This document shows, one piece after another, positions 1 through 41,600 of a DNA stretch of 64,000 nucleotides. The position numbers were made by a program, and so were the translations under genes. Within the stretch, counting starts at the first letter, position 1; the number at the start of each line of letters is the position of its first letter. Location: the NCBI GenBank assembly GCA_010093705.1, contig MU006111.1:1-64000 (forward strand), in the 5' to 3' direction. A model generated the notes under the pieces. It searched no databases. It was given only the letters and a program-made list of their open reading frames with translations, and was not told the origin of the DNA. Source of the DNA: Patellaria atrata CBS 101060 (Eukaryota).

Positions 1-1187
1 ATGGAGTATATGGTTGAACGAGATTTGCCATGTTAGAAGAATAGAGTTCTTAGCTTCGTGGTCTCTTCGAAGACGGCCTCCCTCGTAGTCTAATAAGCTT
101 GTCTTTTTCCTGTCGCTCTTGTAGAACTGGTCTAGATACTGCCGTACTGAACATCTTGGTGCCCGTTGTCGGATGTATGCAGCCGCCTGCACAAGAGCGA
201 GTGGCATGAATTCGAGCGCTGTCGCCAACTCGGCTATACCGTCGTTGTCTATTCCCTCCCCAAGTTTCTTTCGTAGGAGACTTTGCGCACCTATAATACC
301 CATCGGCTCGATGGTTAAAATGTCGGGGTCTTCGACCAACTCCAGCGCCGTACTCCTTGTCCGACTAGTGACCATAACCGCGCCGTTCTTACTCGGGGGC
401 AAATAGGATGCGAGGTGCCGTTGACGAGCGCGATCTCCGCCGCTAGCTTGTATCTTATGGCCATTGCTCGCTTGTAGAGAGAGACTGACGGCATCATCGG
501 CATTATCGAGGACTAACAGCCACTTGCCGTTCTTCTCGTTGCGAAGCCAGCTAGAAACGAGCTCGAATATATCTGCTTGTGGGTCTTTCCGACCAGCCAG
601 CTTGACTTGGTCCGCGATGGCTCGGTAGCCTTGCTCGACCCGGGCCGCGTTGCTGGCGTGAACCCAGAATACCCACGTCTCCGGCGATCGATCTGCGGTT
701 CGATAGCAGTGCTCGATAGCAAGTTGCGACTTTCTATCCCTGCGTTAGGTGCGAGGACCAGGGCGAGTGTTTTCTCCACTTACCCCACGCCACCGAAGCC
801 GACTAATGCTATACGAGATGCCGGCGTGGAGCATTTCTCGTGTATCTCATCGAGTAGCGTGCCACGATCGACGAAGTCTGGGTCACGGCAAAAGGGGATA
901 TCGCAGGAGGGGCTCGGCGGGGTCTCTAGTCTCTCTATTACAGCGGGATTTTAGTATCCTTTCTCTATGACGCAAAGTTACTAGCAACGACTCACCATTA
1001 TATTGGATGTTATAGGTTTCTGTCACGGAGCCTGACTGAAACTTAGCATGAAAACCATATCGCTGTAAATAAGAGACATACCGATCAACTGTGCATTGCC
1101 CGAGATATAACCGGCTACAGTGCCACTGTTGCCAGAGATAGGGCCAAGCTCGATTCCCATCGGGATTGCTGTCACGTTGCTAGCCAT
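1..1187 (-). CDS. Fungal NLR-like NB-ARC protein (5' part; continues beyond the left edge, probably into TPR repeats)
   Basis: Missed by the ORF track. Manual splicing (exons 1187-1082, 1031-996, 934-784, 733-<1; GT-AG introns) gives one open frame: MASNVT...ERLETPPSPSCDIPFCRDPDFVDRG...RIALVGFGGVGKSQLAIEH (Walker A)...WVFWVHAS...WLLVLDNADD (Walker B)...VMVTSR...LEFMPLALVQAAAYI...LLTWQISF. Confidence 0.85.
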
Positions 1188-1763
1188 TACTGCCGCAGAG
1201 GGTTATATATACAAGGCCCAGACACTATACTAGCGTGTTTAGGTAAGTAAAAAAATTATAGGGTACTTTGAATGAGTCGGCTAAAACATCGAAAGACTAC
1301 GCTCGAGTGCGTGGGTATATTTCCTTATAAGCTCTTCACCGGTTAACCTCTCCTAGCTTAATATCGCACAGCCTTTCTCCAGAATTAAGCCCCTACAGGT
1401 TCAGCTGTATTTCAACGTCGCTCTTAGGCTTAAACGAGTGGATATATGCACTCGCGCGGGCTTTAGGTGCGACGGGGCTACATGTAGATTGGAGACCGTC
1501 CAGCTTTCTAGCTGGGCATACGTTGGACAAGCCCCGTACCCGAAAGCTAGTAGTAAATCGGGGATGCCCGACCTTATACCATAATTTTGTATTTCTAAGA
1601 CTGCGAACCCTTCCTATATCAGCGTGTTAGGTGTGCATGCTCAAGAGTATATAACAGGCCACAGCCGCTCCATCAGCGAGGCTCGTCTATAAACATCGGT
1701 TCGGCCTAGTCAAAGTGAGAAATAGAAATAATCGCATTCACCATCTCTCCTACTTGTTCTAAC

Positions 1764-2070
1764 ATGGCCGAAAGTGTAGGATTTGGGATACCTTTACATA
1801 ACCCAAATGATGCCAAGGTCGAGTACGTCTATCCTAGAGTAGCAGCCTATGTCCATTCGACTTCTTATTCAGTCTTACTAACCAAAAGTTAGTATTATAT
1901 TTGTCCACGGTCTGGGCGGCCATAGATCTACGTAGCGTATAGCCTCGGCGGCCTTATTGTCGCAAATGTACTGTGGTAGTGTTTCGCCCGCCGGGCGTCA
2001 ATGAAACGGCGCAGAAACTCACAGAGAATACCATAGGCATGATCTTCTTGGGTACGCCATTTGCGTAACA
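1764..2070 (+). pseudogene. Degenerate SesB/SERAC1-like alpha/beta-hydrolase (lipase) fragment
   Basis: ATG at 1764 and intron 1823-1892 give MAESVGFGIPLHNPNDAKVDIIFVHGLGGHRST* (TAG where W is expected). Shifted frames then give AYSLGGLIV (AHSLGG nucleophile elbow) and TIGMIFLGTPFA. Internal deletion, frameshifts and truncation by an LTR relic. Confidence 0.7.
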
Positions 2071-2144
2071 GGCTAGAGCCTAGTGGTATGGGATGCCCTG
2101 CATCCGAAGATCAGCCAGTAATATTTCCCTCGAACCTACCCTCA

Positions 2145-2260
2145 TGTCGGATTGTTGCGGTAGCTGAAAAGATGCATGCTTGATTCTTACAAAGTAGTTC
2201 TATCTAGCTATTATATACTACAGGTGTGTACCAAAAAAGACGGAACAGTATAAAATCTAC
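2145..2260 (-). mobile_element. RIP-mutated LTR relic (3' half), same family as 4657-4780 and 10368-10537
   Basis: Shares a core of about 55 bp (AGCTGTTATATACTGCAGGTGTGTACC...GACGGAACAGTATGAAATCT) with the other two copies, differing mainly by transitions. Ends in ...GACA on the minus strand. Confidence 0.6.
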
Positions 2261-2280
2261 GTCTTAAAAAATAACGAAAT

Positions 2281-2340
2281 TAGTACCAATAGTAAGAACT
2301 AAAAGATAGTGCTGTATCAGATTAGTAACCCTGGTTACTC
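2281..2340. repeat. Dispersed repeat, inverted copy of ~7293-7350
   Basis: The reverse complement GTAACCAGGGTTACTAATCTGATACAGCACTATCTTTTAGTTCTTACTATTGGT matches 7294-7349 GTAACCAGGGTTACTAATCTGATATAATACTATATCTTTCAGTGCTTACTGTTGGT. Confidence 0.7.
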
Positions 2341-2479
2341 CGACACGTGATACTATAGTCCGTGGTGTAATAAGCGAGCAGCACATTAATCCTGGTTGCC
2401 AATATTCTAACAGAACAGCATATGCCGTCTCAACACTTTTTTTCCTTAAGTTTAAGCTTCATGTACATGTAGTAATATA

Positions 2480-4181
2480 CCTTTCAGCTTCCATCTGAGG
2501 TTGAGCCTTGACACACTCCAAGGCCAGTCTCTCGATAAATCAACCACACAAGCTATTGCTTCCACGGCAAAGAAGACATCTAGAAATGACTGTCTTAAGA
2601 AGTGCCTTTTGTGGAAAAGACGACCGTTGGAGAGTCTGCTCTTATATCAATCCACGAGCTACAAAGCCAATAGACTATTCTGAGACCACCTAAAAGCTCG
2701 TTAATACCAAGATTTTAGAGCTAAATGAGTGGCAACGACTCGTAATCCAGAAGATTCGAACATCTAAGCCAAAGAAGGCTAAAGATGAGAAAGAAGACGC
2801 CTCTAAATCTAACGACAATCGAAAAGGAGATACTGGTATATTCGTTGGAGCAAAGTTTTCGGGTCCTGCAGCCGCTTTTAATCTCGAAGCTATACAGCTA
2901 GAAGCAGTCAATGCCTTTGTCAATAGTGATCTGGACGAAGAAGTATACTGCAGATATCCGGACGGGTTCCACAAACCGGGGCTTGTCATAAAGCTTCGCA
3001 AAGCGTTATACGGACTGAAGAGATCGCCTAAGCTCTGGTATCAGTTGTTTTCGAAAACACTATAAGAGCTGGGGATGATGCCGGTTCCTAATATCAATTG
3101 CTTATTTACGGACGGGACAGTATTAGTGTTTTTCTACGTGGACGATATAGTGCTATTAGCACGTTCTCAGTTTGCAACGAAGCTCCATGAGTTTGAAGAT
3201 AAAGTGATGGGAAAGTTTCCAATGCGAGATCTTGGAGATCTCCAGTATTTTTTGAGAATACGTATCATACGCGACAGGCCAAATTTGAAAATACGGTTGT
3301 GTCAAAACGCCTATATTGACAAGATTGTCAACAGATTTGAGCTTCAGAACTGTCTTGCGAGGCATACATTCCTTCCCACCGAAGAGCTTGTTCAGAACGT
3401 GTCAGACGAAGCACCACCAAGCCTAATATCAGTATACAACACTCGGGTCGGCTCTATTGGCTGGGTGAGCAGCATAACCAGACCAGACATCGCCAAAGCC
3501 CACAGCAAGCTGTCGGAATTCCTTAAGAATCCGTCAAGCAAGCATCTTGAGGCTGCAAATCAAGTGCTGGCTTATCTGAAGTATCACAAGCATCTGGCAA
3601 TTCAGTACGATCGAATGTCGACTGGAAGGGTGTTTGCAAGCTCTTCTGACGCCTCATTTGCAGGTAACCCCGACCGGCGAAGCTCTCAGGGGTTCCTCTT
3701 CTCATTATTCGGTGGACTAATTGACTGGCAGACCTTAAAGCAGAAGACAGTGACCACCTCAAGCACAGAAGCTAAGCTGTTAGCTCTCAGTTTTGCTACC
3801 AGGGAGATGGTAGCGTGGAATCGCTTCTTTGAAGCGATCGACTGTGATCCAGAGCACCGGAGCTCAGTTTGGTGCGACAATCAACAGACGATACGGCTTC
3901 TCAAAGAACCTGAGCCTCAGTTAACAACAAAACTCAGACACGTGGATATCCACCACCTCTGGCTGAGGCAAGAGGTTCAGCATGACCGGATAAACGTAGA
4001 ATAGAAGCCTACAGCCGAGATGCCGGCAGACGGACTGACAAAACCTCTGCCCCGGCAAAAGCACGAAAACTTTGTGAACTTACTAATCCTTTCGACATAC
4101 AACACCTTATTTAAGTGTATAGAACGGACTGTGCAGCTACTGAATAGCATCAAAAACCGCTCTTGAGCAGCTGGAAGGGTG
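2480..4181 (+). mobile_element. Ty1/copia retrotransposon internal region (RT-RNase H pseudogene, internally deleted)
   Basis: RVT_2 motifs QLEAVNAFVNSDLDEEVY, LRKALYGLKRSPKLWY, YVDD and MRDLGDLQYFL; RNase H motifs SDASFA..DRRSSQG, VTTSSTEA, CDNQ, KLRHVDIHHLWLRQ and MPADGLTK. In-frame stops near 3063 (TAA) and 4002 (TAG). A purine-rich PPT-like tract precedes the LTR. Confidence 0.93.
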
Positions 4182-4508
4182 TGTTAGATGGTAGAGCTGT
4201 TAGAGTATTGGTGCTACCGGCGACGAGGGGTAATGTTGAAGTATGGGTCCTTTGGTGGTTCTGTCAGCTATCTGTCAGATATCCGCAACGGAGTAGCATG
4301 GAGCACGAAAAAGTCTCTCTTCAACAATTATCTGTTCCGTCCTCAACTGACTCCACCATCTCAACAGATATCTCAACGACTATTAGATATATTGAGATTT
4401 GGGTACGTGTTCTCTGTACCTCTTAAGTATATATAGAAATTCCTTCGGTAGATAGATAGAAAATCAAGCGATATATTCAGTGCACCTGCAGATCCAGTTT
4501 ATCTAACA
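4182..4508 (+). mobile_element. 3' LTR of the copia element (327 bp)
   Basis: Perfect 8-bp inverted termini TGTTAGAT...ATCTAACA, directly after GGAAGGGTG and downstream of RNase H; internal TATATATA. Confidence 0.85.
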
Positions 4509-4656
4509 GGTGGTGTTGAGTTTTTCTCTCTTCATTTTCCATCTCTTTTGCCATCAATAACGCTCCTGCCTGAGGACTGCATTGTCAGCAGCCTTCAGAT
4601 GAGTCCTTTATAGATTTTATATTTGAATAGTGGGGTTTTTGACGTTGGAGGCTCGG

Positions 4657-4780
4657 TGTTATGCAGATACACAGCTGCCAATGGTTACTATGCAGGTCGA
4701 GAGTTGATAGAATTGATCTTATTTAGCTGTTATATACTGCAGGTGTGTACCGAAATGGACGGAACAGTATGAAATCTATT
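4657..4780 (-). mobile_element. LTR relic (3' half)
   Basis: Carries the ~55-bp core shared with 2145-2260 and 10368-10537; ends ...ATAACA on the minus strand. Confidence 0.6.
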
Positions 4781-4790
4781 GCATACGTAT

Positions 4791-5905
4791 TCAGCCATCA
4801 CGTAAATTCATCTTTTGCTTATAGTGCTTCTGATGAGTACCGCCTTTTTCATCTGCCCAAGCCGTCGAAGCGCGCAAAATCGCCTGCTGTCTCTGCATCT
4901 TTCTTTGAACGGTGGTCAAACTCCGCATTTGTTGCTTAGAGACACCAACAAGACCCATTGCGTCTCGCACGGCGACTGCGATATCTTGAGTTCCTCCTTG
5001 GGCTCTTATGAGTGATTCGGCTTCAGCCGGGTCAGTCGAAGAAGTTATGTCAGTGTTGTCGATTGGACGACCCTCAATAATTGTTCTGTTGGAAGTCTCT
5101 TTGGCCGTCGAGGCAATTCGACGAGCAGAAAGGCGAGCCTCTCGAGCTTTGCTCTTGGATTCAACAACTTTCCCAGAGGGAAGTGTGTATTCGCCTTCCG
5201 ACAAGGCTCTATATGACCCCGCCGTATCAGCTTTTAGTGCCCGTGATTTCGGCGTCGCTTCGTCGTCACTGTCGGAAAATTCCCAGAATTCGAGAAGCTC
5301 CGGTTCGCGCTCCAAGTTGATCATACAATGACCCTTATCGAGCATGTGCCGCCGAATACTTTCAGGGGAATGCCTGGTCATTCCACAGTATAGGCACTCG
5401 TTGTACTCGATGATAACCGTGCGTAGATACCTAATGATTGTCTCGAGACTCGAGAGATGCTCCATCTCAGGAATGTAAAGACCATGCTCTGAGGACATGT
5501 GCTCAAGGTTGGTTTCCATGCTGTCTGAGTTCCTGGGACAAAATAGACAGCGGTTGATCTGAGCCTGTTCATCGATGAGATCTTGAAAATCGTCACTCTC
5601 ATCCGCGGGTTTCTTTTCAGTCGCGGGTATCACTATTGCTGAGGAAAAGGGAGCATCCGATGGTTCTTGTTTGCTCGATACAAGACTCGTTGCCACACTC
5701 TCGGCATAATTAGATGCTGAAATTGGCGGCAGAGATGCTATTCGACGTCTGAGATTATAGACACTATGAATTGGTAAGCCATTCATTCTTAGTGGGTGTT
5801 GTTCGCTTCTTACTGCCACGGCTCTCGCATGTGTGTTCGTTGACCCGGAGAATTTTCGAAAATAAGGTCGCAAGTATTGCATGGAAAAACCTTTTTGAAC
5901 GACAT
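4791..5905 (-). CDS. REI1/REH1-like C2H2 zinc-finger pre-60S ribosome biogenesis factor
   Basis: The true start is probably 5905 with one intron: MSFKKVFPCNTCDLIF...QRTHMREPWH|VYNLRRRIASLPPIS, then CLFC...NLEHMSSEHGLYIP, ECLYCG...IRRHMLDKGHC and TLPSGK. These are hallmark REI1 motifs. Confidence 0.85.
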
Positions 5906-6719
5906 AGTGTCAAATTCAGATGCGTAGCTTATAGTGTTACTTGACGATTCTCCGAGTATGAATGATATCCAGGGATAATAGGTTTTGAATGTCGCAACCA
6001 GTTCAATTGCATTTTGTCAGATCCTGGAGGTCTATTTAATATCGATTTTCTCCTTTTCGGTAGTTCAAATGCATTTCACATATTGTGTAAAAAGTGCATG
6101 GGATCGTGATGACTCGGACCACTACAAATCAGTGAGTCACGAGAAATGGGTGAAGAAGAGAGAAGAGAAATACCCCTTAGACGTTTCTTGTTAAGGGCTA
6201 GAACTAGTGTCTTGGCCAAACCTTTGCCTTTGGGCTGTGCAATCATGCCTACCTCCCTCGCCCCCAGTACATACATCACATTATATACATGAGTAGCGGT
6301 TGCAGAACTAAGCAACGTATGCGAATAATCACAATTAGCACTGTCAGTTCAGTTATTTGACTCATCCTGCACCCAGCAGTCGTCTTCGAGCTCTTCGTCC
6401 GTTCACCCATAACTGAGCGATCCGTATATCTCTAATTTGGGGCTTCAGATACGGCTCTGGATCCTCTATCAGGTACGCTCTAAGCTGAGCGATCGGCACG
6501 GGCTAGATCCGATATCAGATCAAGCCTCAGTCGGACGTGTGTACAGCCTTAGATTCGGCATCAAAATTACCTCTACCTGGCGTTCCATAAGGCGATACGG
6601 TATCATTTAAACCCTGAATAGCTTAGATTCAGTATCCAATTCAGCAACAGATTCTCCCTAAGCACACCTTAGATTCGGCATTAAACTCCGTCTTAAATTC
6701 CGCGTCAGAGGTAATAACC

Positions 6720-7059: not shown

Positions 7060-7350
7060 ATATATTGGAGTATTGGTCCTACTCGTAACCAGAGTTAGCA
7101 AAAAAAGAATTTTACTGCCTTAACGTTAAAAGCCCCACCGTTCAAATTAAAAATAAAGAACTCAAATCTAAAGGTTGCTGATAATGTAGTTTCCAGGCAG
7201 AAGTGCTATCGATAATAAAAGAGATGGAGCTGTTGAAGTATTGGTCCTACCGGCGACTAGGGCTAACGAGCTACTCGCTTATTAAGTATTAGCGTAACCA
7301 GGGTTACTAATCTGATATAATACTATATCTTTCAGTGCTTACTGTTGGTG
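7060..7350 (+). mobile_element. Degenerate LTR fragments related to the 4182-4508 LTR
   Basis: 7221-7267 GAGATGGAGCTGTTGAAGTATTGGTCCTACCGGCGACTAGGGCTAAC resembles the LTR start GATGGTAGAGCTGTTAGAGTATTGGTGCTACCGGCGACGAGGGGTAAT. A second AGTATTGGTCCTAC lies at 7069. Confidence 0.65.
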
Positions 7351-7456
7351 GGAGCACCGCTCTATTCAGGACTGTGAAGGAATACTTAAGGACGCTCCTT
7401 TGCACATGTATTTAGATTCTTCGTAGTTCTTCTTACCAGCATATCTTACTATAAGA

Positions 7457-8377
7457 TTGGATGTTACGGTCTACGACTTAACTCTACCTTATCACGCTGT
7501 TTTTATACAGTATACCTTGTCTCCGTTGTGAGCCTTTATGAAAGAGTTTAGGAGTCAGCAAGTTGTATCGTCAACTTGGAAGGGCAAACGTTCACGTTTT
7601 CCTATTATTAGCGAGACCTACCCTTCTTAGAGAAGGGTCACGTTAGTGAGAATCCTGACGCGTTTCTAGACTTGTCTTGTTCTATCTCGATAAGTATAGA
7701 CTCGCGTTGTAACAGTTGTCTTGAAGAAATTAAGTGTCACAGTGGTTTACAGCGTTAAGGGATTCCTGCAGGTGTTGGGGCTGTTTGGATTGATTACACG
7801 ATTGTACTGGTTTGGTGTTCCTTGCAACCCGTAAGCCGGCTTCGCGCCGTACATCAAAACTGCTGCAAGGAACCATCTTTCCTTTCTTTTTAGTTTTAAC
7901 TTTCTCTCTATTGCATCTAGTGCAACGGTCACTGAGCACTTCATACTGATAGGTCAGGTGTAACTGAATATATTATGCTAAGGAGTAAGAGTATCTACAA
8001 CAGCTACTCTCTAGTAAAGTTTCATACCAAGAGATTAGATCTGATTGATAGGAGATGGGCGTGAGCCTCGTCCTACCTGCTCACGTTTACTCCGTGAGGT
8101 CCAACTTAGTAGCAATTGATTAATATGTTACAACGGGAGTCTACACTTATCGAGATGGAACAGGATAAGTCTGGAAACGCGCCTGGCTTCTCACTTAACG
8201 TGGTCAACCACTAGGGTAGGTTTGGCAAAGTGATAGGATACGTATAACAAAGGCACTTCAAGTTGTCGACACAACTTGCTGACTCCTTGACTTCTGGTTA
8301 ACGCTCACAATGAGACAAGACGTACTGTATGGAAACAGTGTGACAAGTGAAGTCAAGTTCAAAACCGTAACATCCAA
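7457..8377. mobile_element. Non-coding segment of ~920 bp bounded by a 14-bp perfect inverted repeat (solo LTR or MITE-like)
   Basis: TTGGATGTTACGGT at 7457-7470 and ACCGTAACATCCAA at 8364-8377; no coding capacity inside and no clear TSD. Confidence 0.45.
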
Positions 8378-8505
8378 ATCTATGGGTAAGATTGATGGTA
8401 AGAATAACTACGAAGTATCTAAATACATGAGGGAAAGACCGTCCTTAAATATTCCTATCCTTCATAGTCAATTTGGTGCCTTTGGATGTTTTGGACTGGA
8501 CGTTC

Positions 8506-8590: not shown

Positions 8591-8947
8591 TCGTCACGTG
8601 ACCTCCAGTCACTGGTTTCACCCGTAGTTCCTCCGAGTGGTGTTCTACTTTCCTCTCACTCGTGGACTGCATGCTTCTACAACTTGTGGCCGTAACATAA
8701 TACTATCAGTTCTCTCTAGTGCACCGTGACAATTATAATAGTTATATTATGTATTAAAGAAAATAATATAAGAAGAAATAAATTAATTAATTTATAAAGA
8801 TTTTTATTTTTTATTTGAATATATGTAAAAATACTATTGAAAAAAAAGGAGTAAATCTTAAAGGGAAAGGGTGTTAGGATTTTTAGTCTAAAAATCACGT
8901 CCGTACTCGTGCAACCCAATCGAGAATTTCAGGTCCCCACCTTTATA

Positions 8948-9979
8948 ATGGCTGTGCCCGCGAGCTTTAAGGTCCACATCTTTACTCGTCATGATCCGGT
9001 CATCGCAACACTATTCCTCCGAGATCTCTATGCCGACTTTCCTCACGGGAAATGGAATCTTGCGCCTATGGTTCCAGATACTGCGCAGTCTAGTGTCCTA
9101 TCAGATCCACCTCAGCTTCCGAAAGAGCTATGGCATCGCAAAAGAATGGGACGTTTTATCTTACACACGGTCCAGCTAGCGGAAATGTCCTTAGGCGGCT
9201 TGCTTTCCGTATTTGCAGCAGTCTATGGCTTCGAGCTCAAACATCTCGCACAATTCACGATATTTCCACAGTCCGCTAGAGCCCGTAGAGATAATGCACC
9301 TTGGTATGACCGTTCACTTCCATCAACAATGTCCCTAACCGAAGCCTGGAAGCTTGACAATGATATGTGGTACCAGAGACCGCCTGAACCAAGTCCACCG
9401 TTGCACTTGGTCCTGGAGACGAAAGCCGCTGCACTTGGTAGAACTGTGGGTGATGATATCGATGTTAGTGAAGCCACGGCGTACGAATTACGCGATGCTT
9501 GGTCAACATACGAAAGTTTCTGGCGTGATTATCAGTATTGTCAGCAGGATACTCTGTCTGGTGTATTGGCTAGGTTCGAAGAAATTAGACTTCGCCTGAG
9601 TGAGCTGAGTTCTTCAGAAACAGCACTGACGTTCTCGGACGAATTGCAGCTTGGCGAGAGACTGGCCAAAAGGAAGCAAGATTTGTGCCATGCGAGGGAG
9701 GTTCTAATGACCATTGGGTCGAATCACCTTGAGTACGAAATTGAGCACGAGATATATATACTGAACAAAGAGATTGAGCAATTAGAGCCTAATCTAAGCG
9801 CCTTGAAAGAGCTGAAAAGCATGATGGCACTGCATGTTTATCCGTGGGAGCAATGGGTGATGAAGGCGAACTACAACGCAGCTTTAGAGCCACCGAATCT
9901 CCAAGAGGAGCAGATTGAAGACGAAGCCAAACGGGCATTACAGCAAATCAAAGATAAAGCTGCCAATTGGACACCCTAA
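8948..9979 (+). CDS. Hypothetical protein with coiled-coil-like C-terminal half
   Basis: Open frame of over 340 codons with protein-like composition (first ATG at 8948); no family recognised. Confidence 0.5.
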   Translation: MAVPASFKVHIFTRHDPVIATLFLRDLYADFPHGKWNLAPMVPDTAQSSVLSDPPQLPKELWHRKRMGRFILHTVQLAEMSLGGLLSVFAAVYGFELKHLAQFTIFPQSARARRDNAPWYDRSLPSTMSLTEAWKLDNDMWYQRPPEPSPPLHLVLETKAAALGRTVGDDIDVSEATAYELRDAWSTYESFWRDYQYCQQDTLSGVLARFEEIRLRLSELSSSETALTFSDELQLGERLAKRKQDLCHAREVLMTIGSNHLEYEIEHEIYILNKEIEQLEPNLSALKELKSMMALHVYPWEQWVMKANYNAALEPPNLQEEQIEDEAKRALQQIKDKAANWTP

Positions 9980-10367: not shown

Positions 10368-10537
10368 TGTTAGTAAGTTACCTATATTTGCTGTTCTCTA
10401 AGACAGAGATTTCATACTGTTCCGTCCATTTTGGTACACACCTGCAGTATATAACAGCTAGATATGGCCACTCTTTTGAGAATCAAGCGACTATATTCAG
10501 TTATGAGAAATCTCACAGTTTTAGGGCCATCCTAACA
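10368..10537 (+). mobile_element. Short solo-LTR relic
   Basis: TGTTAG...CTAACA termini. Contains the 55-bp shared core, TATATAA, and AATCAAGCGA(C)TATATTCAG, which also occurs near the 3' end of the 4182-4508 LTR. Confidence 0.65.
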
Positions 10538-37208: not shown

Positions 37209-40200
37209 ATGACTGAGCCAGAAGAATTAGACGAGGATCTCTTTGCCGATCTGTTAGTTACCTCTCTCTGTACATGACTTGCAAAGTGTAAAAGTTAACT
37301 TATACAAAAACGTAGTTACGAAAACGATGACAATCCTCCAAAACCATCACAACCCCCAGCCGCACCAAATCCGGTGCCTACAGAACTGACCCCATCTGTC
37401 TCTGATACCGCTTCTGCGGTAAAGCATGAAGCCTTTGACTCATCTGCACCTATTCAAAGCGATATCAAAGAGGATGTTAGCGACATGCGTATGCAGGATG
37501 AGGGTATTGGAGAAGGAAACTATGGTAATGGTTACGTATCGCAGCCTGTTGGTGAAGAGGATTATGGCCCTATTGGAATCAAAGAGGACGGGTAAGTTCT
37601 TTTGTTTGGCATGTTCTTTTCCATATAAATTTGTATATTGTTTTCTTTCATCACAAACCTCGGGTAAGATATTTTGGAGGTTCGTCTATGGCAAACACCG
37701 AGTTTCGCAGGTCCAGTTGCTCTCTCGTTTGGCCAGAGTTGCGCTTGATATAATGCATACTTTGGGAGGTGATAGCATCGTTATCAATCTAGAAAGAAAG
37801 TCTACATAGACTCAATCAAATCATGAATCGCATTCCTCAGCTCAGTGGATGCTATCGAGAGGCTAATTTCCACAATGCCTTTCGAGTCTCGAGACCTTGA
37901 CATACTGGCACATGGATGGTATTTCATACTAGCAGTTGAGAACCTGAGGAACCATCAACAGTCATGAGGTTGGAACGGATGGGAATAGTAGTCGTCAATT
38001 GCACGATCGGGGATGTTCGAAGCGGGAAGCAAATGGGAGAGGCGGAGACCTGGAGAGCTGGCAGCGAAGAGAGAGGAGTGGGAACGGACTCAAATTCGTG
38101 GATAAGCAACGGCCGGACATGGTATGGCAGCCTCGTTTTGATCATCGCCAGGGGGAATACGAGCGTCCCACTCCTTCAGAAGCAATAGGTACATAGCTTC
38201 ATGTGGATATAATCTTCATAGAGCAGAGCTAAACCAGCGCGGGCGAGAAACAGTTTTAGACACATGGAAGACGTGGAAGACATACAGTACCTAGCTATCG
38301 ACTTAGAGCAAAAGAGAGACGATCTTCGAAAATTGGCTGTGCCTTCACCTCGACACACGTTTTTGTTATCTATATGATCTCCTGAGGAGACTTGGTTACA
38401 GCCAACGCGTAATGTCTGATCTGATATCAAGCAATCGACATGACACCTTCGGGTTTGAAGTACAAATATTGTCCGGCGGCCTTAGCTATTGAACTCTCAT
38501 ATGGACTCAACTCCATGTACTGGAGATGAGACTGAACCTATCCCCACTCGCTTTTAACAGCTCGGTCTCTTCACTAGAGCGGAACTTCATAAAGTATCGA
38601 TTTTTGGGAACACAGGACGTACCTTACTGCGGCTTTGCCAAACCATAACTGGTTTACCATCTCGACTGCACTTGGGGTTGCTATGCTCTTGCGATTTCCT
38701 CGTCGTGTTTGCAGCTTCATACCTATCCCACCATGGAAGAGATACCCATATGGATTCCCGTGCACTTCTTCCCATCCGACACAGTTATGACGACGTAGCC
38801 AGTGTGTTTATCTATCGAGACGGAAGACGGGACCTTTGGAAGGACGTTGGGCATCACCTCGCTTTCCATTGCAACTTTACTTGCTTCGCTTGTTAATTTT
38901 ATTTCCATGCGTCCTCGGTTTTTGATTTACGAAAGTAGAATGCTAATCAAAATATTTTCTGTGCAGTAAAATGTTCATTGGCGGATTGAACTGGGAGACC
39001 ACAGATCGTAAGAAGTAGCACCTGGCTTTAGAACATTACATTATCAGACCCTAACATGCTTTAGAATCTCTTAAGGATTATTTCTCTCAATTCGGAGAGG
39101 TCCTCGAATGCACCGTGATGCGAGATAGTGCGACTGGTCGTTCACGTGGATTTGGTTTCCTTACCTTTAAAGATCCAAAGACGGTTAACATCGTTATGGT
39201 GAAGGAACACTGGTTAGATGGCAAAACAGTACGCCAGATCGCTCTTCCAAAGATTTGTCAAGCTAACCGTCATTCAGATCGATCCCAAACGTGCCATTCC
39301 CCGCGAAGAACAAGAACGCACCAGTAAGATTTTTGTTGGCGGCGTCAGTCAGGAAGCAACCGAAGACGACTTCAAGAAATTCTTTCAACAGTTTGGTCGT
39401 GTTATCGATGCCACCCTCATGATGGATAAGGACACTAATCGTCCCCGCGGCTTCGGTTTCGTCACTTTTGACGGTGATGCTGCTGTTGACGCCACTCTTG
39501 CTCAACCTCTTGAGATTCACGGGAAACGCATTGAAGTCAAACGCGCTCAACCTCGTGGTAACCTTCGCGATGGTGAAGAAGACAAGCAAGGAAAATTTGG
39601 TCGCGGTCGTAATGATAAATTTGGCCAGAACGACCAGAATGCCCAGCAGATGCAGAACCAGGTGCAACAGGCGAACCCCAATGGTGCCCCCAACGGCATT
39701 AGTCCCTCGATGATTGCTCAGTACTGGCAGCGCATGCAACAGTACTTCCAGATGATGCAGCAGCAGCTGTCCGTTAACCTGCAACAAGGTCAAATGAACC
39801 CAATGATGGCAGGCGGCCAGATGAATCCAGCTATGATGCAACAAATGCAGCAAATGATGGCTATGCAAAACATGCAACAAGGACCAGATGGAACGCCACT
39901 TTCCCAATCCCCGGGTCCCGGCCAACAGGGTGGTATGAATCCTGCCATGCTGCAGCAGATGCAACAAATGCAACATCAAATGCAAGGTGCCTATCCCCAA
40001 GGTGGCGCAAGTCCTGGCCCGGCCGTGATGCAGCAATCTCTCTCCGGGGGTGCTGGGGGTAGACCTGGCTTCAATGCTCAAGAGCAGCTTCTGTTCGAGC
40101 AGCAAAAGTATGAGCAACAGCAAGCACGTCGTATGGCCCAGCAGGCAGCCCAACACCAACAGCAACAGAATCAAGCGTATAGCAATTTTGGCCAGGGAGG

Positions 40201-40477
40201 TCCCACGAGTTGGGAGGGTATGTATGATGATGTTCCACAACCCAATCTGCCTCCGAGCGGCCCAAGCAGTAATAGTGGCGGCAGTCGCGGAAACTTCAGT
40301 GGAAAATTTAGGGGTGGTCATGGAGGAGGACAAAAGAATCATCCGCAGGTTCAGCCGAGTAATGCGCCTGCCAATGCTCCAACAGGTCCAAAAAATGCAG
40401 GCAAACCAGGCGCAAATTACAGAGGCGGCGGGAGACATGGACAGAGGGGTTTCCATCCCTATTCTCGCAACGGTTAG
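37209..40477 (+). CDS. HRP1: hnRNP/CF IB RNA-binding protein with two RRMs and a Q/G/M-rich low-complexity tail
   Basis: MTEPEELDEDLFADLY...IGIKEDG|KMFIGGLNWETTD...RSRGFGFLTF...IDPKRAIP...KIFVGGV...RPRGFGFVTF, C-terminal PY-NLS (GFHPYSR); long intron 37592-38967. Confidence 0.92.
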
Positions 40478-41600
40478 GTGGTTAGGTGGATTGGGCATGG
40501 TTTCGTTTCTTTGGGTCATTTGTTACATGATTCTCTAGGTCCTTGTTCGTGCATTGTTGGACATGGTTTGGCGGAACAATTTGCCCATTCCTCCCCATTT
40601 TCTTCGACCTCTACTCTATCACTTTCTTCAGTCGGAATTATCCCTAAGATCTTGCCAAACAGAACGGAATTTTTAATATGGGCGTTGTGGACGTATCTTC
40701 GTACCCCTTGGCAGCATGGCTTCTCGGTGTCTTATACTTTTTTCATGCCTATCAGGTTCTCGTTCGGTGGATGTATTATAACTCTTGATATAAGGACGAC
40801 GAGTCCGCTTCATATGAACCTGCGGCTCAAGCCGGTCTCTAGTTGCTTGATGAGTTGAAATTCAGATAGTTTCATTTGAGATTAGAACCATCCTCTCTAA
40901 AACTTTCCAAACCAACCGCCGGTTCAATGGGTCTAATTATCACTTTCTATAGCTACAATCCAATATTTATGACCCTCGTTTTAGTGTAACATAATCATAA
41001 CTGATCAATCTAGGATATCATCTCCCCTATCAACCATACCTACTTCCCTCCATACTGAACTCATTGACCTTGACAATCACAGCAACGGTTCTGTGCTTAA
41101 TCAAAAATCGAGATATATGCTAGTGAGAATTATTCAAGAGTCGGCGGATGGCTGGATGCAGTAAAATTAAAGCGACTGTGGATGGGGATCGTAGTGGAAG
41201 GTGTTGAATACGTGAATGCTCACTTAACAGTCTTAACTAGTTCTAAATCTTTCTGATAATATATATCTCGAATATTTGGTATACAATTCTGCGTTCTTTA
41301 TGACATATATGTTCAGTTCCTTCGAAGGCGCAGAGTACCCCCTTGCACGGTATTTTTACAATACCGAAGTACCTAATTCCGTTAGTTCTAGTAAAGGTAG
41401 ATTGATGAAGTAGACTTCGATTCGAGTAGAGCTGTAGAGCATGCCCGCTTATAACGCCCTATAAATTCTCGTTTTCCAGTCACAGTGTTTTCTTCCTTGC
41501 TTCCAGAAATTCAAATTCATTGTAATACTAGCTACAAGAAATCCTGTCACTAAGAACTGGCCTAAAACATATACGTCATTGATGTCAGCATAACTACCCA

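Follow-up and report, generated by a model that had tools for sequence, protein, structure and literature searches.

The text of the literature on fungal amyloid motifs distinguishes about half a dozen families, namely HRAM, PP, sigma, two PUASM types and the provisional GDQN, and three described systems serve as precedents for the locus considered here: NWD2/HET-S, PNT1/SBP and HET-eN/SesB (PMC5485727, PMC3321046, PMC7885112). In the PNT1/HELLP/SBP system of Chaetomium globosum (PP motif; Ses_B, PF17046), a receptor of NB-ARC-TPR type starts with a short motif in which the adjacent putative lipase ends, and the motif is described as a central G-phi-Q-phi-G within the pseudopalindrome NxGxQxGxN (PMC3321046, PMC7885112). 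The HET-eN/SesA/SesB system of Nectria haematococca (sigma motif, PF17106) has a SesB alpha/beta hydrolase beside a STAND gene, and NWD2/HET-S is a divergent gene pair of the HRAM1-5 type. The pattern given for the latter comprises G19, hydrophobic residues at positions 5, 8, 10, 16 and 18, R or K at 15 and a large polar residue at 3 (PMC4518210).

The locus reported here lies at one end of the window, i.e. the whole stretch of 64,000 nucleotides of Patellaria atrata DNA that was analysed. It shares with the PNT1 system the probable type of receptor, the short N-terminal motif and a neighbouring lipase whose intact relatives end in the motif of the receptor, with N-x-G-phi-x-phi-G spacing; with the HET-eN system it shares the placing of a SesB-like hydrolase beside a STAND gene, and with NWD2/HET-S the divergent orientation. 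Its architecture is that of a known fungal NLR/SesB amyloid-signalling pair. Receptor and hydrolase are paired, they have a terminal peptide in common, and the hydrolase of this copy has been destroyed. Our analysis suggests, with a probability of about three in four, that the locus represents a copy, now decayed, of a two-gene module that has been duplicated, in which a putative amyloid formed by the peptide would activate the hydrolase.

Organization of the locus

The initial annotation of this DNA described two divergent start codons 577 bp apart, that of an NLR gene at 1187 on the minus strand and that of a lipase-like gene at 1764 on the plus strand. Both positions were borne out, and the following features were delineated.

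1..733, minus strand: NLR exon 4, predicted STAND nucleotide-binding domain (NB-ARC/NACHT-like; profiles, relatives), open and crossing the window edge, its visible part without TPRs
784..934, minus strand: NLR exon 3, the linker with the beginning of the P-loop (splice model)
996..1031, minus strand: NLR exon 2, last part of the motif (G-S..T-Y-N), with a counterpart in the lipase tail; splicing confirmed by P0124 and P0126
1082..1187, minus strand: NLR exon 1, candidate N-terminal amyloid signalling motif, with a phase-1 intron at the exon end, likewise in the metagenome contig L001
1188..1763, no strand: divergent spacer of 576 bp, TpA-enriched (1.45 vs 0.83)
1764..1822, plus strand: exon 1 of the SesB-like hydrolase pseudogene, residues 1-20 of the intact paralog P0157 (alignment), followed by an intron at 1823-1892
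1893..1925, plus strand: start of hydrolase exon 2, residues 21-31, stopping at a deletion junction (alignment, run contigs)
1926..1967, plus strand: hydrolase residues 116-129, which include the nucleophile elbow, in a different frame from residues 1-31 (alignment)
1968..2065, plus strand: 8-nt stub, second frameshift, then residues 130-159 (alignment)
2066..2513, no strand: high-copy repeats in place of the lipase 3' half, 2066-2144 and then a TG..CA-bounded LTR-like segment at 2145-2513

TATA-like boxes had been proposed upstream of both genes. TATAWAW sites do exist on both sides, at 1203-1209 (minus strand) and 1648-1654 (plus strand), but we do not accept them as evidence of function, because the window contains 49 such sites against 33.8 expected, just 16 nt separate the box on the NLR side from its ATG, and TpA is overrepresented in the spacer. 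In runs X1 and X2, which represent one sample, probably of DNA, with depths not taken as copy numbers, a contig joins 1425 to 1713 and omits the intervening 287 bp (1426-1712), therefore another copy links both upstream regions. The spacer so shortened would measure ~289 bp, near the 283 bp found in L001. The lipase-side TATA-like box falls inside the omitted 1426-1712. Another related copy omits 1477-1521 of the spacer.

Decay of the hydrolase gene

Inactivation of the effector, as the initial annotation had it, is evident from an internal deletion, frameshifts and replacement of the 3' half by repeats; the effector cannot be made at this locus, which is in itself an ordinary pseudogene. The lipase motifs pointed out before (IIFVHGLGGH, AYSLGG and IFLGTP) are all present, and 69 of the 74 surviving codons agree with P0157. 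From this protein of 351 aa, residues 1-31, 116-129 and 130-159 are retained and residues 32-115 and everything past residue 159 are missing, with no trace of the rest elsewhere in the 64 kb. The nucleophile elbow keeps its Ser, with the preceding His changed to Tyr, and neither the putative catalytic His nor the C-terminal motif is present in the window. None of the four pieces of the window lipase submitted to Pfam was matched.

The stop codon reported in the lipase, TAG at 1933-1935, does exist but is not a native nonsense mutation, since loss of residues 32-115 changes the reading frame and the triplet is read off-frame past the 1925/1926 junction; its derivation from a mutated Trp codon was considered and rejected. 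In X1 and X2, contigs have a joint precisely at 1925/1926; such a joint would be expected if the deleted segment survives in another copy. The 8-nt stub at 1968 is probably the remnant of an intron. As to the truncation of the 3' end by an LTR, repeats indeed replace this half of the gene, but they begin at ~2066 and the LTR-like piece only at 2145. Homology to the lipase is certain by identity up to 2065 (residue 159); a tblastn alignment continues to 2086 across two stops, and 2066-2086 was rejected as lipase on account of low identity, the two stops and high copy. Summed depth in X1 amounts to ~30,000 at 2090 vs ~1,200 over the lipase, the high-copy part starting at ~2066-2090, and loose ends occur at 2144 and 2513. 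All five substitutions in the lipase are C>T or G>A, three of them in CpA/TpG context, a sequence pattern consistent with repeat-induced point mutation.

The receptor gene

On the minus strand, the four exons of the NLR give a spliced frame of 342 codons with no stop between the ATG at 1187 and the window edge, in agreement with the earlier description of this frame as open in its visible part; a scripted test of splice sites yielded this single solution. Walker A and Walker B motifs are both intact. The public model P0126, which bears the label Patellaria atrata as do the nearest paralogs, all of them probably belonging to one genome, is identical to the window NLR over the first 293 residues and reaches 25.9 bits with Pfam NACHT (cut-off 26.7) and 20.2 with NB-ARC (cut-off 23.5). 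The receptor thus has a STAND domain just below the Pfam cut-offs, with about 50 residues before the linker and no effector domain. At a threshold of E 1e-40 its last exon finds 1854 relatives, the top one (87% identity) being annotated as NB-ARC + TPR, and four TPR_10 stretches occur in the paralog P0125.

It is an even question, in our judgement, whether both genes are dead, the NLR being broken just left of the window and the whole locus an inert duplicate, a situation compatible with the preferred reading of a decayed module copy. P0126 leaves the true frame past residue 293 and ends at 311 aa, so that the NLR may be interrupted beyond the window edge; among the paralog models are ones of 200 aa and 518 aa (partial), and in its clade the window copy stands on the longest branch (0.14 vs 0.03-0.04). 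The 342 open codons in four well-formed exons and the intact Walker motifs speak for a living receptor, as does the share of C>T or G>A among the private changes of its nucleotide-binding domain, which is three of nine vs five of five in the lipase.

Five NLR copies are on record from the Patellaria atrata genome. The models P0001 and P0125 have no second exon and show D where the motif has a conserved G; their N-terminal peptides may be degenerate or mis-annotated. The neighbour of the intact lipase P0157 is a partial NLR model, so that the genome may lack a fully intact pair.

Receptor-lipase pairs at other loci

A 41-residue piece of the lipase led to three relatives.

P0157 (KAF2841091), 351 aa: intact lipase of Patellaria atrata
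P0156 (KAF2838467), 369 aa: without the middle, and with an end that looks retrotransposon-derived by eye
P0158, 356 aa: intact lipase of Paraphaeosphaeria sporulosa

Accession KAF2841091 directly follows that of an NLR, P0002 (KAF2841090), and KAF2838467 that of the NLR P0001 (KAF2838466); within each pair the contigs of record agree in length. Both of the two lipase paralogs in Patellaria are in this way paired with a receptor by accession order, which carries neither orientation nor distance. Metagenomes searched with a DNA pattern derived from the receptor peptide contained seven matches, one of them true (L001); the other six proved to be unrelated sequence. On L001 the peptide exon occupies the minus strand and an intact divergent SesB-like gene lies 283 bp away, coding for a lipase ~50% identical to P0157; the NLR of this contig, which ends before the nucleotide-binding domain, is identified by its N-terminus only. 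An effector gene is therefore adjacent to the receptor in the window, in two accession pairs and in L001, the last stemming from another organism and again with divergent layout. These results, together with the match of the lipase tails to the NLR N-terminus, support the receptor-effector pair postulated by the initial annotation. Of the two conditions that it named as refuting, neither was borne out: lipase paralogs adjoin NLR paralogs by accession order, and the intact lipases are stand-alone proteins with a C-terminus that aligns with the NLR N-terminus. The module is multi-copy, with one intact lipase model among the paralogs.

It is most improbable that the lipase fragment lies beside the NLR by chance, or that it is what remains of an independent gene fusing SesB with NACHT. 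SesB-like domains do figure among the commonest fused NLR N-termini in the text of PMC12258605, but the closest intact lipases are stand-alone proteins (351 and 356 aa) that end in the motif, and the adjacency is found again at two other Patellaria loci and in L001.

With the DUF676 profile P0158 scores 21.8 bits (cut-off 20.3) and P0157 19.4, the serine elbow lying at residues 119-124; on this sequence basis both are classed as DUF676-type (SesB-like) alpha/beta hydrolases. The Atlas clusters nearest to P0157 (Atlas score 0.98) consist of DUF676 proteins, some with NACHT_sigma (33%, 15%) or Ses_B (47%). PDB sequence searches gave no meaningful match, and a single-sequence AlphaFold2 model of P0157 was of no use (pLDDT 32.6). 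P0157 had no relative among 101 pattern matches in prokaryote genomes and 7 in viral contigs. P0157 and P0158 are identical in 296 of 359 columns (82%); Patellaria and Paraphaeosphaeria belong to different orders, and their likeness via horizontal transfer is possible.

The shared terminal peptide

The initial annotation expected intact relatives to disclose the cognate motif. All three intact lipases examined (P0157, P0158 and that of L001, the first two being 82% identical) end in I-x-x-N-x-G-V-V-x-G...G-S and match the NLR N-terminal peptide beyond shuffles. When residues 1-47 of the window NLR were aligned locally with the complete lipases, the best match fell at 305-342 of P0157 (0/1000 shuffles of the last 60 residues as high) and at 305-340 of P0158 (2/1000 shuffles). 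The NLR exon 1 peptide scored 24.9 bits with a profile from which close paralogs had been left out, vs 9.2 bits with a PP profile. For a receptor profile made of 34 receptor-side peptides, again with close paralogs and with effectors left out, the scores of the lipase tails were equalled or exceeded by 0/2000 shuffles for L001, 1-2/2000 for P0157 and 15/2000 for P0158; the corresponding counts for a PP profile of 36 peptides were 846/2000, 639/2000 and 869/2000. Two PP peptides matched the L001 tail weakly (10/1000 and 8/1000 shuffles as high). The tails score low with the receptor profile (3.8-12.4 bits), and cognate pairs are not the best ones, as the L001 tail scores 50 against P0034 and 39 against the exon 1 peptide of its own NLR. 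All three tails carry the same four-residue loop insertion relative to receptors. G/N/V/I/T/S make up 73-76% of the tails, vs 38% of the lipase body.

The consensus of 38 rows (40 minus P0152, which has no anchor, and P0153, a long repeat protein) reads T-G-A-K-x-F-G-x-I-S-x-N-x-G-V-V-x-G-D-x-S-G-x-A-x-V-I-G, and in sequence the peptide is of a glutamine-free class with the PP-like spacing N-x-G-phi-V-phi-G-x-x-x-G. It differs from the PP motif of PNT1/HELLP/SBP in that the central Q is replaced by V or I (Q in 0/38, partly by selection, as the rows were gathered from Q-free seeds) and the second N occurs in 0/38; the loops of the tails here are four residues longer, and no HeLo-like third gene was seen at this locus. 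The peptide had no match among Pfam motif profiles; Pfam Ses_B matched none of seven motif members and did match the control P0003.

Nor does the peptide agree with the other motifs, whose definitions, like that of PP, were taken from the text of PMC3321046, PMC9815663 and PMC12261475. Sigma-bearing DUF676 proteins occur in the Atlas clusters closest to P0157, a further likeness to HET-eN/SesA/SesB, but neither sigma sub-motif (GxGxQFN, GGTQNI) occurs in the 38 rows or the two tails tested, and there is no threefold repeat and no match to PF17106 (NACHT_sigma). PUASM (FxGxGxQxxGxGxF) and the GDQN core are equally absent from the 38 rows and two tails. A conserved G followed by D or N in 30 of the 38 rows recalls HRAM1-5. 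In an ungapped comparison, HRAM position 5 agrees in 2/38 rows, position 8 in 1/38 and position 15 in 0/38. Insertion of one residue raises the agreement to 27/38 at hydrophobic position 5, 37/38 at position 8 and 29/38 at position 10, and R/K15 to 16/38; position 3 holds no N, Q or H with or without the gap. In place of the two-repeat HeLo-type effector that goes with HRAM1-5, the effector here carries a single motif and is a hydrolase, not HeLo or PNP_UDP.

The motif class NLR40 is described as HRAM-like, 26 aa long, usually at residues 6-31 and with no known effector (PMC9815663); it likewise occurs in ascomycete receptors, and residues 6-31 are the conserved span here. The 14 NLR40 rows compared by description are NACHT proteins, mostly with ANK or WD, from taxa absent from the named matches here. 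The peptide may belong to a new class or to that of NLR40, with which it was compared by description alone. Identity with NLR39 is unlikely, because the latter is described as G-phi-Q-phi-G (PMC9815663), and among the bacterial BASS1-10 motifs BASS3, as described, needs a central Q. Further literature used for comparison comprised PMC7889193 and bioRxiv 2020.01.06.895854. No description of this motif was found in running text, figures, logos and subscription papers lying outside the scope of the search, and the Atlas gave no usable match for it.

The N-termini of 120 listed relatives of the nucleotide-binding domain comprise 6 of the window type, 36 that are PP-like and 78 that are neither. 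An exhaustive profile search returned 30 proteins, with an effector-side C-terminal match in none. Profile searches also found many short unnamed reading frames in which similarity ends near residue 37, and this end coincides with the intron position in the window NLR and L001. The same peptide heads P0121, a NACHT-ankyrin protein of Aspergillus nanangensis, and is therefore found outside NB-ARC-TPR receptors too. Seven named NLRs from other genera bear the motif. In a quick tree built from 73 nucleotide-binding domains with a usable P-loop, the nine motif rows need eight changes, at least four of them forced by well-supported branches; receptors thus seem to have exchanged the peptide.

Such scatter of a motif residing on its own exon would also suit a different interpretation, in which the pair is functionally linked but the peptide is a non-amyloid contact (beta-strand addition, a small heterodimer) or a relic of exon shuffling. 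The missing core glutamine (0/38) and the modest effector-side scores point the same way. We regard this interpretation as unlikely, since the position, length, G/N/hydrophobic make-up and effector family are all as in the described amyloid systems, and the spacing is conserved between lipases only ~50% identical.

More tentatively, and at somewhat less than even odds, the peptide would represent a new glutamine-free fungal motif family present in Dothideomycetes, Eurotiomycetes and Lecanoromycetes. Such a family would be characterized by a swappable first exon, by SesB-like hydrolases as the only effectors, by a sequence bridging the PP/RHIM and HET-s types and by a four-residue asymmetry between receptor and effector, and several dispersed receptors, including the orphan in the window, may signal in trans to the single surviving lipase. 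With its PP spacing without the core glutamine and its partial HET-s fit, the motif bears on the question whether the PP/RHIM and HET-s folds are related. A further class with a named effector would provide a new orthogonal prion-type switch to test.

Proposed mechanism

One plausible scheme for the intact module, drawn from its family, would start with oligomerization of the STAND-TPR receptor upon ligand sensing. The clustered N-terminal peptides of the receptor could then nucleate a cross-beta fold, and this fold would serve as template for the matching peptide at the C-terminus of the SesB-like serine hydrolase encoded next to the receptor, switching the enzyme on. By analogy with PNT1/SBP and HET-eN/SesB, the activated hydrolase would probably attack membrane lipids and lead to cell death or defence. 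In the copy studied here, the hydrolase has been destroyed by the internal deletion, C-to-T and G-to-A changes and retrotransposon sequence. The window receptor, if whole, could act on an intact lipase elsewhere; many-to-one signalling is offered as speculation in the text of PMC9815663. The pair would make a compact two-gene system for studying how amyloid templating activates an enzyme, SesB lipases being among the least characterised effectors, and the copies of the locus illustrate erosion of a module by duplication, point mutation and retrotransposons.

Repeats and other features of the window

Transposon debris is abundant across the initial 11 kb, where the following element was delineated.

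2694..4508, plus strand: decayed Copia-type element, RT/RNase H region with stops at 2694-4004, purine tract and LTR at 4182-4508

RVT_2 matches in the Copia region have E values of 1e-10 and 3e-13. Repeat fragments are shared, in both orientations, among 2201-2283, 4720-4778 and 10382-10464, and among 4194-4233, 4538-4646 and 7122-7349. A long imperfect inverted repeat at 7378-8456, with arms of 77-88% complementarity and its centre near 7900, is possibly a fold-back or non-autonomous element. Adjoining the Copia LTR, a 372-codon frame at 4791-5909 (minus strand) contains a zf-C2H2_2 domain (E 5e-28), and a 374-codon frame at 8855-9979 (plus strand) comes after an AT-rich tract (~8720-8850). 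At 39218-40522 two open frames of 419 codons overlap on opposite strands, and the minus frame looks, by sequence, like an RNA-binding protein with a Q-rich tail.
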